Assembly: GCA_000965745.1 (NCBI GenBank)
Contig: CP009479.1
Location: 864,001-928,000 of the forward strand
Length of the DNA stretch: 64,000 nt
Direction of reading: 5' to 3'
Source: an uncultured archaeon
Lineage (GTDB): Archaea > Thermoplasmatota > Thermoplasmata > Thermoplasmatales > Thermoplasmataceae
Shown: in pieces, positions 22,820 to 58,426 of the stretch
Numbering within the stretch: position 1 is the first letter of the stretch
How the letters are laid out: each line of letters opens with the position of its first letter
Made by a program: the position numbers and the translations under genes
Notes under the pieces: model-generated
The model's database searches: none
The model's input: the letters and a program-made list of their open reading frames with translations, nothing else
Told to the model about the DNA's origin: nothing

Positions 22820-22904
22820 GCAGGGGTTGTCGAGATTGGTCAAAGGCGCTAGATTGAGGGTCTAGTCCCGTAGGGGTACGTGGGTTCAAATCCCATCCCC
22901 TGCA
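22820..22904 (+). tRNA. tRNA-Leu (GAG)
   Basis: GCAGGGG/CCCCTGC acceptor stem, CTAGA-TTGAGGG-TCTAG anticodon arm, long variable arm, GGTTCAAATCC T arm; no encoded CCA. Confidence 0.96.
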
Positions 22905-48913: not shown

Positions 48914-51592
48914 TCAACCCTGATACACGGATGATACGCCATTCACCTTTGTAACCTCGAATGATGCATCGGCAGCTGAGGTCAACTCAGTGTGGTGTGT
49001 GATCATTATCATCTGCTGAACCATGTTTTCATCCTTCAGGGAGTACTGTATGATCTCCTTCAGGTTGTTCCTCCTGTCCTCGTCAAGGAAATTTGTGGGC
49101 TCATCCATAATAACAGTGCTGACCCTTCCTGTCAGATATTTGGCGATGGCGAGTCGCACCGCGATAGCCAAGGAGATTCTCTCCCCGCCACTTAAGGAAT
49201 CAAGTGGCTCTTCAACGCCATTGTTTATCACTTTTATGTCAAAATTCTCGTCTATCCTGACATCGTCAAACTCGAAGTTGAACGACGAAAGGTAATTCCT
49301 TGTCATGTTGTTAATTGAAACGGACGAATCCTTTCTTATGAGGGCCTGAATCCCGTTTCTTTCAAAGGCACTTCTCAGTTTCTCGAGTTTTGCGGAAGCA
49401 GCCTTTATCTTATCCAGTTTCAGTTTGTCCTTCTCCAGGGATGACAATTCGAGTTCTAGCTTTTCAATTGTTGACCTGAAGGTCTTCATCCTTTCAGAAT
49501 ATGCGGTTACATTCTGCCTTATCCCATCCAGCTCTTTCTTCTGCCTGTTGTACAGTTCAACTGCCCTCTCAAGTTCCTGCCTGACATCTCCGAGGGATAT
49601 GATTTCATTACTCTTCTTCTCAAGGTCAGAATCGATCTCGGCCAATGCCCTCCTGTCGTTTTCGAGCTCATTCAGGACCCTGTTGTACTCTGCTTCTGCA
49701 TTCCTTATCCTCTCGTATTTTTCCACCAGGGCCTCAAGCCGGTTCCGGTCCTCATCAGAGGGCTCCATCCCTATGCTGATTACCAGGCTCTCCAGCAACT
49801 CGCTCTTTTCCCTCTCCTCATTTTCGTACCTGGCCAGTTTTTCCCGCAATGTCTCAATGGGGATTCTGCTCACTGCATATGTTATGGAATTGAATTCATT
49901 CTCCTGTTGCTTAAGGGCCTCCTTTTCTTTCATAGCCTCTCCGAGTTTCCCCTCCACGTGTGAAAGTTCTGCAAATTTCGACTTCAACTCATCCATTCTC
50001 TCCTCCTTTTCGGCTATGGAGTCCTTCAGCCTTGAGAGTTCGTCCCTTGCAAGCATGAATCTCTCTATGCCAGGTCTTCTCAGCCGGGCAAGTTCCTCCT
50101 CTCTCTTTCTGTAGGCATTATTGAGGCCGGAAACTTCTGCGCCGGACTCGGCTATTTCCTTCAGAAACTCTTCTTCTCTTGCCTGGTAGGCAGAGTGAAT
50201 CTCCCCGAGGTGAAAATCATCGAGGTCACTTCCGCAAACAGGGCATTTCCTGTTGTCACCAAGCGTCTCCTTATTCTTCCTGAGTTCTGTGAGCTGTCTA
50301 TTGATTCCCCCGACACGCTCTTTCAGGGCATTTCTCTGCCCTTCTATTTCCCTGAGCCCCTTCTCTAGCTCTCCAATTGACCGGGCAACACTGTTCCTGT
50401 CAAGGCTCATCAGGTCGGCAAATTCAGGGGAAGAAAGGGTTCCGGAAAGTTCCATGGCTTTCCTCTTCTCCGCTTTGACTTCTTCATCGGCAGAGTCTTT
50501 CAGCGCTTTATAGCTGTGTAGCGACTTTGCCTTCTCCTCAAGGTCTTTAACAAGGGATTCAACCTCCCTGTACCTTCTGTGGCTTTCTGCAAGTGCCCCT
50601 AGCTTCTTCTTCTCTGCCTCATAGTCACTTATGGCAGTTCTTACATTTTCAAGAGAGACTTCGAGAGTCCTGAACTCGCTCTTGAGGTTGAAAAATCTGG
50701 TAACTTCCGACTTCCTGGCGAACAACGTTTCCTTCTCTATCCTCTCCTTTTCAGCTGCAGAGAACGAGATACCCTTGATGAGCTGCTGGCTCTTCCCGAT
50801 ATTATTCTTGACAGCTTCCGCCTTGGCCTTCAGTTCGTCAATCCTGGTTCTTACCGCATCAAAACCTGCCTTTTTCTGCATTGCGTCGTCTCTTCTTATT
50901 TCGAGCTCCTGCATTGCCTCGTGCGCCTTCTTCTCTCTCCCGGCTTCTTCTGATAAGAGAACTTCAGCCTTTTCTAACTCCTCTTTAGCTTCAGACCTGT
51001 CACCGGATATCCTGTCAAGCCTGTCCTGAATGTTTGAAAAGCGCGCTTCTTCCAAGCGCAGTGCATCCCTTATGCTCTTTATCTTCTGCGCATTCTCCGA
51101 CAGCACATCAATTCCAATGATTTTGCTGAACAGTTTCTCCCTGTTGGCAGGCGTTTCAGAAATGAGCGCGTCCATCTCGCCCTGCCTGACAAAAACAGAA
51201 TTCAGGAATATGTCCTTCGGGATCCTTAGCCCGTCCTTTATCTCCTTGTTTACTCCCTCGGCAGTCTCTGCTATCATCACATTGTCAAGCTTGATCCAGG
51301 AATTTCTTCCGGTTATGCTGCTCTTCCCAAGGGTAAGGCTCCTGAACAGCTCGTAATATCTGTCGTTAAGCCTGAAGCCGATGGTGACTGCACACTCCCT
51401 TGCGCCGCTCCTTATGAGCTCGGCAATCTTGTCGCCGCGCTTCTCGCCGAAAAGGGCGAACCTGATTGCATCAACAATGCTGGATTTTCCCGCACCATTT
51501 TTTCCATAAATGATGTTGATGCCATTCTCGAAGCGAATCAGCGTGTCAGAATGAGACAGGAAATTGTTAAGCTGGATATAGTCAATTATCAT
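48914..51592 (-). CDS. rad50: Rad50 ATPase
   Basis: NFLSH, GKNGAGKSS, QGE, CPVC zinc hook, LSGGE, MDEPT. Confidence 0.96.
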   Translation of the reverse strand: MIIDYIQLNNFLSHSDTLIRFENGINIIYGKNGAGKSSIVDAIRFALFGEKRGDKIAELIRSGARECAVTIGFRLNDRYYELFRSLTLGKSSITGRNSWIKLDNVMIAETAEGVNKEIKDGLRIPKDIFLNSVFVRQGEMDALISETPANREKLFSKIIGIDVLSENAQKIKSIRDALRLEEARFSNIQDRLDRISGDRSEAKEELEKAEVLLSEEAGREKKAHEAMQELEIRRDDAMQKKAGFDAVRTRIDELKAKAEAVKNNIGKSQQLIKGISFSAAEKERIEKETLFARKSEVTRFFNLKSEFRTLEVSLENVRTAISDYEAEKKKLGALAESHRRYREVESLVKDLEEKAKSLHSYKALKDSADEEVKAEKRKAMELSGTLSSPEFADLMSLDRNSVARSIGELEKGLREIEGQRNALKERVGGINRQLTELRKNKETLGDNRKCPVCGSDLDDFHLGEIHSAYQAREEEFLKEIAESGAEVSGLNNAYRKREEELARLRRPGIERFMLARDELSRLKDSIAEKEERMDELKSKFAELSHVEGKLGEAMKEKEALKQQENEFNSITYAVSRIPIETLREKLARYENEEREKSELLESLVISIGMEPSDEDRNRLEALVEKYERIRNAEAEYNRVLNELENDRRALAEIDSDLEKKSNEIISLGDVRQELERAVELYNRQKKELDGIRQNVTAYSERMKTFRSTIEKLELELSSLEKDKLKLDKIKAASAKLEKLRSAFERNGIQALIRKDSSVSINNMTRNYLSSFNFEFDDVRIDENFDIKVINNGVEEPLDSLSGGERISLAIAVRLAIAKYLTGRVSTVIMDEPTNFLDEDRRNNLKEIIQYSLKDENMVQQMIMITHHTELTSAADASFEVTKVNGVSSVYQG

Positions 51593-52745
51593 AGTTACCA
51601 ACTTCGAAATCTATTCCAAGTTTCTCGAGTATTACCCGCCGTGCCTTTTCGAATTCATCATCCCTTAGTGTCTCATAGACCTCATTCGCAAGGGAGGACA
51701 TGCTATCATCACCAAAATACGCTTTGAAGTAATCGATAAGGCTGTTCATGTTGGGTTCTTCAACCGACACCTCTTTTTGAGGGTCGAACCTCACTCTTCT
51801 GAAGAAATACTGGTCTGATAGCTTCTTGAGGGAATTCTTGACCTCTTCCCTGTCGGACTCACCAGTTATCGTGAGAAGCACCATTGGCTTCTTTTCCCCG
51901 AACCTGTCAGCATACCTGCTGTGCATTTTCTCGAGTTCATCAATATAGTTTTCCTGCCTCGCGGTGACTTCGACCTGAAACCTTGTGCTCTTGAGCCTGA
52001 CTCTTTCAACTGATACCTCCCCTCCCTTTACTTCAACGAGATTGACGCCCTTGCCCCCTTTCAGGAACCTTGCGATCTCGCTGGAACTGGTCATGTCGGT
52101 GGACCCTGCGTATGAGAATACTGGATATTCCTTGTCCCTCACCACATGATCGTGGATATGCCCGAATGCAAGGTACGAGAAGGTTTTCGGGAGATCGTCA
52201 TACCTGGCCTCACATGCTTCAGGGTGCAGGTAAGGTGAAACAGCCTGGTGTGAGAGGAGTACTGAGGATCTATAATCTGTTGCCATGGATTCTGCTTTCC
52301 TGTACTCTTCAACAAGCAGATCCTTCCTGAGCCCTTTCATATTTGAAATTCCGTAAAGAAGCATGCTTTCACCGTCGTAGCTGAGCTCAACATTTCTCCG
52401 GGCATCCGGAGCCCCGTCATCGAGCAGCTTAACACCGAGAAAATCAAATATCTTGGAAGCCGGGTCATCCCTTCTTTTAGGCCTGTCGTGGTCGCCCATT
52501 ATTATGTACATGCCCCTGTTTGCATCAGATATCTGCCTGGCGAAATCCTTGAACTTGAGCAGTGCGTGGTTTCCAGGATTCCATGTGTCAAACAGGTCTC
52601 CAGTGTGGATGAAGAAGTCTACATGCTCCGAAAGACCAATATTTATGGCTTCCTGGAAAGCCTCGTAGAAATCCTCTTCCCTGAAAGATTCTCCATATTC
52701 CCTGTTTCCAAGGTGTGTGTCCGAGAAGTGAAGGAACTTGACCAT
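51582..52745 (-). CDS. mre11: Mre11 nuclease
   Basis: SDTHLG, GDLFD, GDHD, HQ, GHIH, YAGS. Confidence 0.95.
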   Translation of the reverse strand: MVKFLHFSDTHLGNREYGESFREEDFYEAFQEAINIGLSEHVDFFIHTGDLFDTWNPGNHALLKFKDFARQISDANRGMYIIMGDHDRPKRRDDPASKIFDFLGVKLLDDGAPDARRNVELSYDGESMLLYGISNMKGLRKDLLVEEYRKAESMATDYRSSVLLSHQAVSPYLHPEACEARYDDLPKTFSYLAFGHIHDHVVRDKEYPVFSYAGSTDMTSSSEIARFLKGGKGVNLVEVKGGEVSVERVRLKSTRFQVEVTARQENYIDELEKMHSRYADRFGEKKPMVLLTITGESDREEVKNSLKKLSDQYFFRRVRFDPQKEVSVEEPNMNSLIDYFKAYFGDDSMSSLANEVYETLRDDEFEKARRVILEKLGIDFEVGNYDN

Positions 52746-54284
52746 TTAATCACCCAGAAGGTTCCTGATCCTTTTGTTGTCCTCAGCTGGATCGGTCTTC
52801 TTTCTTCGGTCCTCCCTGGCCTCACGGAGGAGCGAAACCAGATCAACATCCCCTCCTCCCTCTCGCGTCTTTCTTTCCCTTATCTTTGTCACGACAGGAA
52901 GTTTCACGAATTCCCCAACAAGGACTGCTTCACCGACATTAAGCGATGGAAGGTCGTCTATGACGGCCTGGCTTATGCTTTCTCCACTCTCGAGGACAGC
53001 ATTCTGGTCAAGGGGATTTGTTATCCTGAGAATTATTTCGGAATTGCACTGGCTCAGCACATCCTGGTCAATCTTTCCCGGCCTCTGTGTGATAACCACA
53101 AGGAAAATGCCGAATTTTCTGCCTTCTGAAGCTATCTTCTTGATCATGGCTGATATCTGGGTGTTCTGCTTCGGAGGGACAAAGTTGTGTGCCTCCTCAA
53201 TAAACACAAAAACTGGGTACTTGTAGTCCGATGTTGCCTTTATTTCGTAAATCTCGTTCAGGACCCGGAACGAGAAATAGTTTGCAAGGAACTGGTCCAT
53301 CCCTGAGAGGTCGAGAATGCTCATCTGTCCCGGTGCCAGATACTCTCCTATGCCAGTGGTCCTTTCCCCGAAAATTGACTTTATCTTGGACAGGAACCTG
53401 AGCCTTCCTGCAATCTTTCTCTGGTCTTCCTGCTGCAGCTTGTCCGCACTTTTTATGAAGTCATCAAGGTCCTTTCTTCCGGACATCTGCTTCATCATCT
53501 CATCAACAATTCTGTTAAGGTTCGTCCATGACTCTTTTATTCCCATTATTCCCGAGACATCTTCAGTTTCCATGTCCTGGAACCTCAATGAAAAGTCTTC
53601 GGCAAAGAAGCTTGAGGGGGAATATCTGCCAGTGCTAAGGGGAGTCCTGAATACCTTCACAGAATCCGCGAACTCCTTATCTTCCGAGCCACGCTGCATC
53701 AGCACATAGTCGGCGTGGGGGTCAAGAACTATTATCGTTGCACCCTTCTTCAGGAGCTCTTCCATCAGGACTCCTGCAGTATGGCTTTTTCCCGCGCCTG
53801 TCTGTGCCACAATTGCCAGATGCCTTCTCAGCCCGTTCACGTTTACAGCCACTCTGACATCGGATCTGTCGGCAAGGTACCCTATATGGAGGGATTCCTG
53901 CTCCCCATAACCGAAAATTCCTTCCAGAAGGCCGGTTTCCGCCCTGTACACTTCGGTTCCTGGCTTGATAAGTTCCCTGGTCAGATTCAGCCCATCACCA
54001 TTCAAGGTTCCGAGGGTTCTAGTATAGCATATTATGTTATTGTCGCCTATCTCGCTCGTCACGTATTTCGAGACACTCTCGAAATCGAGGCCCGTATTCA
54101 GCAGCTCGCTCCGGGAGACGATCCTCTCAACTCTTCCTATTATCCTGTCTTTCCCGCTGTTTATGTAAACATACTCCCACTTCTTGACTTCAGCATCGGG
54201 GTTCAGCACAAACATGAACGAGTCTGACGAGTTGTCACCTACTGTAAAACCCAGGTTAGATTCTGATTCTGGCACGTCTTTCAC
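52746..54284 (-). CDS. herA: HerA helicase
   Basis: HAS barrel, RHLAIVAQTGAGKS, DPH, EEAHNF, EGRKFG, TQRP. Confidence 0.95.
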   Translation of the reverse strand: MKDVPESESNLGFTVGDNSSDSFMFVLNPDAEVKKWEYVYINSGKDRIIGRVERIVSRSELLNTGLDFESVSKYVTSEIGDNNIICYTRTLGTLNGDGLNLTRELIKPGTEVYRAETGLLEGIFGYGEQESLHIGYLADRSDVRVAVNVNGLRRHLAIVAQTGAGKSHTAGVLMEELLKKGATIIVLDPHADYVLMQRGSEDKEFADSVKVFRTPLSTGRYSPSSFFAEDFSLRFQDMETEDVSGIMGIKESWTNLNRIVDEMMKQMSGRKDLDDFIKSADKLQQEDQRKIAGRLRFLSKIKSIFGERTTGIGEYLAPGQMSILDLSGMDQFLANYFSFRVLNEIYEIKATSDYKYPVFVFIEEAHNFVPPKQNTQISAMIKKIASEGRKFGIFLVVITQRPGKIDQDVLSQCNSEIILRITNPLDQNAVLESGESISQAVIDDLPSLNVGEAVLVGEFVKLPVVTKIRERKTREGGGDVDLVSLLREAREDRRKKTDPAEDNKRIRNLLGD

Positions 54285-55320
54285 CTCTTGTCTCGTAAAA
54301 CGGGACTCCTACAACACTTTCGAATGTTCTCATGTATAACCCTTCAATTTCTTTCTGCCTGAACTTGACGTCCCTGTCCACGTCAGCAAGCCAGATATTG
54401 TGGGTTTTCAGGCCACCATATCCCCAGAAGATCATCTCCATAATATCGCCGTCCAGGTCGTATGCTGCAGTCCTGGCATCAGCGGAATCCTGTGCTTCAG
54501 GCAGTACAAGGTCAACCTTGATGGGCAGATCATTATGATCAGGCAGGGCATGTAGGGTTACTACATTAAGCCTTGACTGGCCAAGCTCATTCCTGTCAGC
54601 CGGGAATGACACCTTCAGAGGCACGGTGTAGCCACTTGCTTTGGCGAACGATTTGATAAGAAGATGATCGGTTCTCCTGTACTCACGCTCGCTTTTGATC
54701 ATATCTTCGGTGTGCACACTCCTGTCCAGGTTATCAAGCAGGTAATTCCTGAAAAGCAAACTTTCCGAGCTTTTTGCTACGAATGCCATCGGTATCCCGT
54801 TCTCTATGCAGTACCGGAGCAGTGCGTAGAGTTCCCTGAAGTAAATTTCGATGAAGTTTTCATAGTTTTCAGCATCTATCCTGTTTCTCTTATGCCTGAG
54901 CCTTCCAGCCAGAGATCCATCCATGAGGACATAATCGGGCTTCTCCTCCTTCAGGAGATTGAGTGTTGCAACATGTTCTGTGTGCTCCATCAGAAGTATG
55001 GTGAAATTTCTTATTTCGTCCCTGTTCACGTCCATTACCTCGCAGATGAAATCTTTGGCAGTTCTGTTCTTTGTCTTGGCATAAGCCCTTATGAGGATCA
55101 GCTTCTTTCCGTTGTACAGTTCACGGACAAATTCGCTGCTGTCTGTGGCAGAGATCGAACCCGGATTGAACCTGCTGTCTGCTTTCTCTATGAAATTCTT
55201 GCCGAAAGCTTCATCATACAGGCGCCTGAGAGGAGAATCGCTGTCTATCAGCAATGACTCCCTTACCCTCTCCAGATTATCGTTAAGAAACTTAAGGTAG
55301 TCCTCATAGGTATCATTCAT
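54256..55320 (-). CDS. nurA: NurA nuclease
   Basis: ATDSS, E..E, MDGSL, AKSS, D motifs; first gene of the herA-mre11-rad50 operon. Confidence 0.88.
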   Translation of the reverse strand: MNDTYEDYLKFLNDNLERVRESLLIDSDSPLRRLYDEAFGKNFIEKADSRFNPGSISATDSSEFVRELYNGKKLILIRAYAKTKNRTAKDFICEVMDVNRDEIRNFTILLMEHTEHVATLNLLKEEKPDYVLMDGSLAGRLRHKRNRIDAENYENFIEIYFRELYALLRYCIENGIPMAFVAKSSESLLFRNYLLDNLDRSVHTEDMIKSEREYRRTDHLLIKSFAKASGYTVPLKVSFPADRNELGQSRLNVVTLHALPDHNDLPIKVDLVLPEAQDSADARTAAYDLDGDIMEMIFWGYGGLKTHNIWLADVDRDVKFRQKEIEGLYMRTFESVVGVPFYETRGERRARIRI

Positions 55321-55394
55321 AATCAAACACTTGATGGCTGATGTTCCCATGAGATTGTGTGATTAAAAATTTTGTTGTATTGCCTGCTGAACAA

Positions 55395-56480: not shown

Positions 56481-56494
56481 AAGGTTCACCGTTA

Positions 56495-56690
56495 AACTGT
56501 TCCCCAGGTTAACGAAGTTATTCACGTTTCGTAACTCTCTGACCCACTGGGGATTTTGTTGCCAGCCGCTGATCGAACCTACATAGCATGAACTTATCAT
56601 ACGCTCAGTCCGAGGCCCATGGCGTGGCAAATTATTGTCTCATGTCGTCATACATGTTCATCAGATCACATGTACTATTTTTTGAGACAA
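56495..56690 (-). ncRNA. Three-hairpin box H/ACA pseudouridylation guide RNA
   Basis: Three stem-pocket-stem hairpins followed by AUA, ACA and ACA. K-loop in the first hairpin. The third pocket is complementary to archaeal 23S helix 69. Confidence 0.8.
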
Positions 56691-56710: not shown

Positions 56711-56724
56711 CTTAAAGTTTTTAT
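56711..56724 (-). promoter_or_regulatory. BRE/TATA of the H/ACA RNA
   Basis: ATAAAAAC-TTTAAG on the minus strand, 21-26 nt upstream of hairpin 1. Confidence 0.5.
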
Positions 56725-56856: not shown

Positions 56857-57840
56857 TTAATCTCTCCAGACTTTCCTTACAGAAGCTATTCTGGGAGATT
56901 CCTCGAGGCTCATCCTGGTCCTGTACGTGATCCTGCCCCTCGTGAACAGGATCTCGACTGAACCACCTATGTTCTCATTTGCCATGTATTCGATGAGTTC
57001 CTTCATCCCGTTTATGTTCTTGTCTCCCATTGCAGTAATGACATCACCGGGTTGGAGCCCAGCATAATAGGCCGGGCTGTCCTGGGAGACCCTGGCAACA
57101 AGAACTCCGCTGTCATTGCTCAGGTTGTATGCGCAGGCAACACTGGAGTTGAGCTCCATTCCAGATATTCCCAGCCAGGGCCTGATGACTCTGCCGTTCT
57201 CCAGAATATCATTCATGATCCTCTTCACTGTGTTGACGGGTATTGCGAAACCCACTCCCTGTGCAAACGGGATCATCGCGGTGTTTATTCCTATCACTTT
57301 GCCTGAAAGGTTTGCAAGAGGCCCTCCACTGTTGCCAGGGTTGATCGCTGCATCAGTCTGGATCAGCCCTTCAAAAATGAAGTCCGCCCATGGGAGGGGC
57401 CTTCCCACTGCACTTACAAGCCCAAGCGATACTGTGGGGTCTCCAGGTAGCCCCAGTGCATTTCCTATTGCAAGCGCCATTTGCCCCGGCCTGACCTTGT
57501 CTGAATCGGCGAGATCTGCAACAGGAAGGCCATGCCCCTCGATCCCGACCAAAGCTATATCTGTGGCAGGATCTGTCCCAAGAACCTCTCCAGGCCTGCT
57601 CTCCCCATTTGGAAGTACTACTTCCACATTTTCAGCCCCCTCAAGCACATGGTTATTGGTGACGATGTGCCCCTCTTGGTCAACAATAATGCCGGATGCT
57701 GAACCAATTGAAGGGGACAGACCGTACATGAAGTTGCGCGAAACCCTTGTAGTGTTGATTGTGACAACACTGTTCCTCAATCTCTCCACAGACTTCTCTA
57801 TCTCACTTTGAAATTTCTCCAGCTCGGACATTAGTTTCAC
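56857..57840 (-). CDS. HtrA/DegP-like trypsin protease with PDZ domain (cytoplasmic)
   Basis: TNNHV, DIAL, QTDAAINPGNSGGP, PDZ domain. Confidence 0.95.
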   Translation of the reverse strand: MKLMSELEKFQSEIEKSVERLRNSVVTINTTRVSRNFMYGLSPSIGSASGIIVDQEGHIVTNNHVLEGAENVEVVLPNGESRPGEVLGTDPATDIALVGIEGHGLPVADLADSDKVRPGQMALAIGNALGLPGDPTVSLGLVSAVGRPLPWADFIFEGLIQTDAAINPGNSGGPLANLSGKVIGINTAMIPFAQGVGFAIPVNTVKRIMNDILENGRVIRPWLGISGMELNSSVACAYNLSNDSGVLVARVSQDSPAYYAGLQPGDVITAMGDKNINGMKELIEYMANENIGGSVEILFTRGRITYRTRMSLEESPRIASVRKVWRD

Positions 57841-58353: not shown

Positions 58354-58426
58354 GGGCTTGTAGTCTAGCGGTCATGACGTCGCTCTCACACAGCGGAGGT
58401 CGCCGGTTCAAATCCGGCCAGGCCCA
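58354..58426 (+). tRNA. tRNA-Val (CAC)
   Basis: GGGCTTG/CAGGCCC acceptor stem, TCGCT-CTCACAC-AGCGG anticodon arm, GGTTCAAATCC T arm. Confidence 0.96.

Follow-up and report, generated by a model that had tools for sequence, protein, structure and literature searches.

The described RNAs closest to the one reported here belong to the HgcG family (Rfam RF00064), which includes Pab40 of Pyrococcus abyssi, Pf7, Pho40 and Afu-4 of Archaeoglobus fulgidus. These RNAs carry three tandem box H/ACA motifs with the helix 69 guide in last place: the motif 3 pocket, GGGU(U/C)A/GUUA, serves U1915 (P. abyssi Psi2016), motif 2 combines a GG(U/C)CC-like 5′ strand that has an A-loop option with the 3′ strand AACCC for U2586, and motif 1 is aimed at U2496 (P. 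abyssi 2588). Target sites here and below are numbered against the E. coli 23S gene, rrl. Haloferax volcanii likewise has a helix 69 guide for Psi1915, sR-h45, whose HP1 and HP2 are homologues of Pf7 stems II and III and which shares the K-turn and ANA boxes, but it has two stem-loops, makes Psi1917 as well through an unpaired UNUN, and targets U2586 with its other hairpin (PMC2584109, PMC7075261).

Here we describe a relative of these RNAs in a genome of the Thermoplasmataceae (2.23 Mb, single contig). The window is the whole stretch of 64,000 nt that was analysed, G000:C1:864001-928000, and positions refer to it unless a contig is named. An initial annotation had read three H/ACA hairpins on the minus strand, and all three are present in the sequence where it had placed them. 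Comparative sequence analysis now confirms the locus at 56689-56498 (minus strand) as real: a box H/ACA guide RNA of three hairpins. The system is not new in kind; it appears to be a divergent relative of HgcG/Pab40/Afu-4, and a probable orthologue with two re-aimed pockets, a relationship that the annotation had missed. The explanation that best combines the evidence, and that we hold to be distinctly probable, is a Thermoplasmataceae three-motif H/ACA sRNA guiding sites in 23S rRNA. It predicts three pseudouridines, in helix 69 and the peptidyl-transferase centre, and the RNA would most likely direct the pseudouridine-making enzyme to three uridines in the working core of the ribosome. This is apparently the first H/ACA guide for the whole order Thermoplasmatales, since in the literature searched (most subscription papers lay outside its scope) we found no description of this RNA, of another H/ACA guide in the order, or of Thermoplasmatales rRNA pseudouridines. 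The features of the locus are as follows.

56498..56689, minus strand: three-hairpin box H/ACA guide RNA, about 192-198 nt (predicted ends)
56633..56689, minus strand: hairpin 1 (Hp1), with hairpin 56689-56636, AUA box 56635-56633 and a 14-nt spacer
56650..56682, minus strand: parts of Hp1 above its lower stem as read from the sequence, namely 5′ strand 56682-56676 and 10-layer GA stem with K-loop 56675-56650
56643..56649, minus strand: 3′ guide of Hp1, GACGACA, predicted target U2511 (2537 in the genome's own 23S)
56555..56629, minus strand: hairpin 2 (Hp2), with hairpin 56629-56560, ACA 56559-56557 and ANA region 56559-56555
56615..56620 and 56568..56571, minus strand: Hp2 guides, 5′ AUGGGC (56620-56615) and 3′ CAGC (56571-56568), predicted target U2554 or U2555 (own 2580/2581)
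56498..56553, minus strand: hairpin 3 (Hp3), with hairpin 56553-56501, K-loop stem and ACA 56500-56498
56540..56545 and 56510..56513, minus strand: Hp3 guides, 5′ GGGUCA (56545-56540) and 3′ GUUA (56513-56510), predicted target U1915 (own 1951)
56711..56722, minus strand: putative promoter, a BRE/TATA-like element with TTTAAG after an A-rich run, located about 22 nt upstream of Hp1
56486..56490, minus strand: Shine-Dalgarno-like GGUGA, as read from the sequence, ahead of the M50 start codon
55395..56480, minus strand: M50 (site-2-type) membrane protease gene, 361 aa (Pfam PF02163, E = 7e-22)
56481..56630, minus strand: spurious 50-codon N-terminal ORF extension from TTG 56630, overlapping Hp2 and Hp3
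56857..57840, minus strand: HtrA/DegP-type trypsin-PDZ protease gene (Pfam Trypsin_2 and PDZ_2), the upstream neighbour, outside the RNA

A conserved RNA between two protease genes

The RNA is intergenic on the minus strand, flanked by the HtrA-type and M50 protease genes. The folding z-score of the region is -2.98, with 1 of 200 shuffles folding equally well. Covariation of the stems, on which the initial annotation had staked its proposal, is present: among 21 homologues and seven helices, 90.1% of cells pair, against 31-42% in slid controls, and 31 of the 45 pairs carry changes on both sides (0/500 shuffles for these values), although the homologues are related and counts across them are not independent. 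In the same alignment the stems vary while the pocket strands are invariant, as are the tandem GA/GA of the Hp1 and Hp3 K-loops. The box consensus across relatives is ANA (ACA, AUA, AGA, AAA) rather than ACA, and the spacing from pocket to ANA is 14 nt in Hp1, 13 nt in Hp3, and 14 nt in the Hp2 of relatives but 13 or 15 nt in the Hp2 found here; a productive H/ACA fold has been defined by a 10-layer GA stem and a 14-nt spacer (PMC4652768), and Hp1 agrees with it in both respects. GC content (43-50% in the RNA, about 44% in the flanking genes) is not a marker of the RNA.

Rfam scans of the region at gathering and E-value thresholds (RF00064 up to E = 10) gave no match. R1 denotes a covariance model built only from Thermoplasmataceae sequences of the RNA; its E-values are rough. 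R1 found a single copy in 78 of 84 genomes of the family and in 131 of 151 Thermoplasmatales genomes, and it also picks up copies that lie away from the M50 gene. Among the 24 family loci first fetched, 21 have the homologue directly upstream of an M50 orthologue.

Two explanations of the locus that do without a guide were weighed against this pattern. One is that the structure arose by chance within an N-terminal extension that the M50 protease really has. The ORF that starts at TTG 56630 encodes 411 aa and is open through Hp2 and Hp3 in the host genome, but a comparison of open frames gives 359-378 aa in relatives against 414 here; the extension is kept open in none of them, and both covariation and pocket conservation lie far above the controls, which refutes the chance reading and leaves it a negligible probability. 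Since the frames of relatives are this short, the 411-aa extension is an artefact and ATG 56480, 17 nt past the last ACA of the RNA, is the likely start codon, so that the RNA locus corrects the start of the protease gene. The initial annotation had held that the ORF caller masks the RNA by extending this gene; the extension is indeed spurious, but from TTG 56630 it covers Hp2 and Hp3 and leaves Hp1 free. The other explanation sees the structure chiefly as a 5′ leader that regulates the M50 mRNA in cis: L7Ae bound to the K-loops would control translation, and the matches to rRNA would be relics. Such a leader would fit the distance of 17 nt from the end of the RNA to the ATG, a stretch with a Shine-Dalgarno-like motif but no U-run, and the fact that most of the family keeps RNA and gene linked; yet the pockets are intact in copies not linked to the M50 gene (G005, G021, G024 and families f3, f5 and f6), and the invariant bases are those complementary to rRNA. 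We consider a leader of this kind very improbable.

The TATA-like box that the initial annotation had placed upstream is there, TTTAAG preceded by an A-rich BRE at 56722-56711, and a similar A-run with a TTWA(A/W) box occurs at the same distance in the relatives examined. A scan for sigma-70 promoters and terminators gave nothing above chance, its bacterial model being ill suited to archaea. No U-run terminator was seen in the sequence between the RNA and the M50 gene, and this, together with the GGUGA motif, suggests that the two share a single transcript whose 3′ end is trimmed. Transcription would start from the RNA's own TATA box and probably run on into the downstream gene, and trimming would leave an end just beyond the last ANA box. 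U-runs that follow unlinked copies measure 4-8, against at most 4 in linked copies. In one clade (L143-L145, from G005, G021 and G024) the RNA lies apart from the M50 locus, and the U-rich runs behind it fit a gene that stands alone.

The M50 gene is followed immediately downstream by a rad50-mre11-herA-nurA cluster (48914-55350, minus strand), in which HerA and NurA were assigned by Pfam and Rad50 and Mre11 by eye from the ORF listing; such a cluster is ordinary in thermoacidophilic archaea. The window also holds genes for tRNA-Val(CAC) (58354-58426, plus strand) and tRNA-Leu(GAG) (22820-22904, plus strand). The 23S gene (G000:C1:355487-358406) and the 16S gene (367220-368689 of the same contig) are unlinked, about 9 kb apart with the 23S first, an arrangement known for the Thermoplasmatales.

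Hairpins 3 and 2 and their predicted targets

The initial annotation had matched the pockets to a euryarchaeal 23S consensus. The sequences it used are present in the genome's own 23S, and pairing of the pockets with its own rRNA yielded complementarity for both Hp2 and Hp3. Hp3 has its best match in 16S and 23S at U1915, as had been proposed, with 4+6 = 10 Watson-Crick pairs flanking the uridine (3/300 shuffles), and both of its guide strands are invariant in the 21 homologues, the pocket thus being kept across relatives. The distance from pocket to ACA had been given as 14 nt and is in fact 13 nt, with the target at +14. This spacer is 13 nt in the Thermoplasmataceae and 14 nt in sister families; it is one short of the 14-15 rule, and a 13-nt spacer is tolerated in Pyrobaculum guides. 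A search of the genome for an RluA/RsuA-type stand-alone enzyme able to make Psi1915 found none, and Hp3 would very probably make Psi1915 in helix 69. U1917 was ruled out as a second target of Hp3. Unlike in sR-h45, the invariant 5′ guide GGGUCA pairs with this base, and the double modification of the Haloferax type is therefore not predicted; Pab40 and Afu-4 do not make Psi1917 in vitro.

The best rRNA match of Hp2 is the A-loop of the genome's own 23S, where 4+6 = 10 Watson-Crick pairs flank U2554-U2555-C2556 (1/300 shuffles), in agreement with the site near 2554 originally suggested; the uridine is U2554 or U2555. The guide covaries with its target: Thermoplasmatales have GCUG in the rRNA and CAG(C) in the RNA, whereas in other Thermoplasmatota helix 92 carries GUUG and the guide is CAAC. 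U2586 was ruled out as a target since this base is C2586 in the own 23S. The ACA that was said to follow Hp2 is found at 56559-56557, but the box conserved among relatives lies one base 3′ and reads CAA here, so that the box in use must be either the ACA at 13 nt or the AAA at 15 nt. The 3′ strand of the Hp2 K-turn (56578-56587, minus strand) has GU here, GC in two congeners and UGA in other genera; this replacement of GA by GU or GC is limited to the host genus and removes one G.A pair, which makes Hp2 the one hairpin whose K-turn is doubtful, and the GU variant may weaken the binding of L7Ae to Hp2.

An A-loop pseudouridine made by Hp2 is likely, with U2554 somewhat likelier than U2555 as its position. 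U2554 is also the eukaryotic site, yeast Psi2923, where modification is guided by snR10, and this counts against U2555. Further, where several uridines are unpaired, modification falls on the most 5′ of them (PMC7075261), and two genomes have A2555 (G029 and G033), of which G029 retains the Hp2 pocket. That Hp2 modifies U2555 instead is possible but doubtful: the conserved ANA register would put U2555 at the +15 position and leave the canonical unpaired UN, and Archaeoglobus Psi2601, proposed for motif 2 of Afu-4, corresponds to E. coli 2555 by published offsets (PMC2377435).

Hairpin 1 and U2511

The stems, K-loop and AUA box of Hp1 are present as initially annotated, and the only lead on its target, a match of the 3′ guide to UGUCGUC, was right: it resolves to U2511 of 23S rRNA. 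GACGACA pairs with U2504-C2510 at -9.1 kcal/mol, with U2511 then at +15. To this the 5′ strand adds one pair, and the resulting 7+1 match is not significant alone (57 of 300 shuffles reach 8). The assignment to U2511 therefore draws mostly on the two-sided pockets of relatives. Sister families f3 (GGAA/GACGAC) and f5 ((U/A)AGGAA/GAC(G)) both have pockets that flank U2511, and two of these score 10 pairs (6+4 and 4+6), reached by 3/300 and 6/300 shuffles. In family f50 the guide reads CCGAC where its own 23S has GUCGG (G2509). Five genomes at a greater distance have GACGAC pockets too, one of them as a bare loop without a K-loop. A 16S match of Hp1 (GUCGUCA) was rejected, since it is not followed by a U. 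On these grounds Hp1 is very likely aimed at U2511 in helix 90.

At this site the archaeal and eukaryotic precedents differ. P. abyssi U2603 and T. kodakarensis U2607 are the same site and are modified by the same enzyme, Cbf5-Gar1, but no guide RNA exists there or is needed, whereas in the Thermoplasmataceae a conserved hairpin is complementary to it (PMC2377435, PMC6138745). The equivalence with Psi2603 of P. abyssi, where no guide was found, follows from an offset of 92, taken from the Pab35 sites 2549/2672/2697, which are the RluE/RluC/RluB sites (PMC2377435); in Thermococcus, Cbf5-Gar1 makes the pseudouridine at the U2511 equivalent without RNA in vivo (PMC6138745). By an offset of 369, U2511 is also yeast Psi2880, where modification is guided by snR34 (PMC11121408). 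Unlike the RNA described here, snR34 and snR10 are eukaryotic two-hairpin snoRNAs without K-turns, and homology is not claimed. No archaeal guide for U2511 was found described in the literature searched, again with most subscription papers outside its scope.

In most members of the family the 5′ strand of Hp1 makes one pair only, although some keep AA or GAA, and with this strand eroded Hp1 would act mainly through the 6-7-bp 3′ duplex. One-sided 3′ guides do work in vivo, as in Sulfolobus islandicus sR148, which likewise uses a single 3′ guide strand with duplexes down to 6 bp but differs in lacking a lower stem and ACA box and in targeting helix 69 sites, not U2511 (PMC11077068). The 3′ guide strand has been found to matter more than the 5′ strand (PMC2377435); in Haloferax both sides of the pocket are required in vivo (PMC7075261). 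On balance Hp1 is somewhat more likely than not to be catalytically productive in this genome. We lean slightly towards a broader proposal, that Hp1 is the first archaeal guide for Psi2511, a site conserved in eukaryotes and served by Cbf5-Gar1 alone in Thermococcales, and that its pocket forms a series within one order, 5′-heavy in f5, balanced in f3, nearly one-sided 3′ in the Thermoplasmataceae and lost in f6 and f4. If true, this would be a natural series for one site whose modification, always by the same enzyme, shifts between guide-free and RNA-guided, and it would make testable both guide-dependence elsewhere in archaea, as in eukaryotes, and the minimum of guide pairing.

It is possible, though unlikely, that Hp2 and Hp3 are working guides while Hp1 is no longer catalytic, Psi2511 being made by Cbf5-Gar1 alone, as in Thermococcales, or absent, and the Hp1 3′ strand being kept as a folding chaperone or a tether, which would keep helix 89/90 open or increase the local concentration of Cbf5. 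The single pair of the 5′ strand in most family members speaks for this, as do RNA-free modification in Thermococcus (PMC6138745) and the fate of Hp1 elsewhere, which is lost altogether in f6 and f4 and has a pocket without clear target in one genome (G007). However, nearly all members keep GACGAC together with a K-loop stem of 10 layers and a spacer of 14 nt, a geometry for catalysis and not for mere pairing, and sR148 indicates that one-sided guides are able to work in vivo. Less probable still is a second or different register of Hp1, either at U2509, with the 3′ strand slid by three and AAUA of the 5′ strand pairing 2511-2514, or inverted, with AANUAG pairing upstream with C2495-U2500. Archaea commonly have H/ACA motifs that serve two or three targets, the U2509 register offers 5+4 pairs with wobbles, and a different register would account for the conserved U-A just before the Hp1 upper stem in 19 of 21 aligned homologues. 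Against it, the U2509 register requires the basal pair to open, which leaves a 9-layer stem of the non-productive kind (PMC4652768), and the duplex energies of the alternatives (-3.5/+1.1 and +0.6 kcal/mol) compare poorly with that of the U2511 register; in f3 and one f5 genus the basal pairs are unable to pair G2508, and f50 retains the pocket with G2509. The U2511 register thus remains our preferred reading.

Several variants of Hp1 were also observed. In L103 (G095) it is a stem with a 9-nt loop of GACGACA only, followed by ACA, with neither 5′ guide nor K-loop. Families f6 and f4 have a two-hairpin form without Hp1 (L152-L156, L198-L204). In G007 (L021:2590-2805) the pocket now reads UACAA/GGAGUGA on a 9-layer stem; an rRNA target for this pocket was sought with no convincing result, and re-targeting or decay is possible.

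Relation to HgcG and the modification machinery

The pocket of Hp3 is the same as that of HgcG motif 3, and Hp2 shares the 5′ strand of motif 2 with its A-loop option. The RNA differs from HgcG in its length of about 195 nt, in the short K-loop that ends Hp3, in the Hp1 pocket and in the 3′ strand of the Hp2 pocket. Relative to the HgcG pattern, Hp1 would have moved from U2496 to U2511, and Hp2, with the 3′ strand CAGC instead of AACCC, would have lost its U2586 pairing where the rRNA has C2586. That U2496 came first is suggested by Pyrococcus and by what most of the phylum has: at least 29 of 50 HgcG-like loci in the Thermoplasmatota have a motif 1 pocket of the U2496 type (CGAAG/GCAA), and most HgcG-like RNAs of the phylum have AACCC for U2586 as the Hp2 3′ strand.

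The RF00064 profile gave no match in the host genome or in three family genomes tested. It matches 52 of 151 genomes of the phylum Thermoplasmatota, one of them over the cut-off and none in the Thermoplasmataceae. Of 50 loci derived from RF00064, R1 recovers 37 at E<0.1, with a highest score of 60 bits and mostly with identical coordinates, and the loci where the two models coincide include the one over the gathering score (39.5 bits). Since the RNA falls below the RF00064 gathering threshold, given here as 77 bits, we file it as a probable orthologue and not as a member of RF00064. These data point to an HgcG family much wider than the Rfam model, with pockets re-aimed in step with changes in the rRNA.

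Scans of the whole genome for other guides returned little. A strict descriptor found only Hp1 and is insensitive, as it misses Hp2 and Hp3; a loose scan re-found Hp3 together with ten other matches, of which the five that were checked all lie within ORFs. One of these five, a U2496-like pocket at G000:C1:858636-858668 (minus strand), has an 8-bp lower stem but lacks an upper stem, lies antisense to a probable ribulose-phosphate epimerase gene and was judged to be due to chance.

The genome encodes Cbf5 with the motif II Asp (TIGR00425, 314 bits), Nop10 (PF04135, 61 bits) and L7Ae (TIGR03677, 150 bits), all over their cut-offs, and a Gar1 that scores 23 bits, under the cut-off, and recurs in 39 of 41 genomes. 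In each hairpin the K-loop or K-turn would bind L7Ae, and the lower stem and ANA box would bind Cbf5, together with Nop10 and Gar1, a mode of binding established for the H/ACA class and carried over to this RNA. The pockets, given the complementarity found, would pair with pre-23S rRNA, each presenting one uridine to Cbf5; of the predicted pairings examined by Muller et al., 6 of 21 were inactive.

Finally, about 50 unannotated HgcG-like RNAs (L063-L112) occur across the Thermoplasmatota below the Rfam cut-off, several of them without Hp3 or with long spacers between the hairpins.
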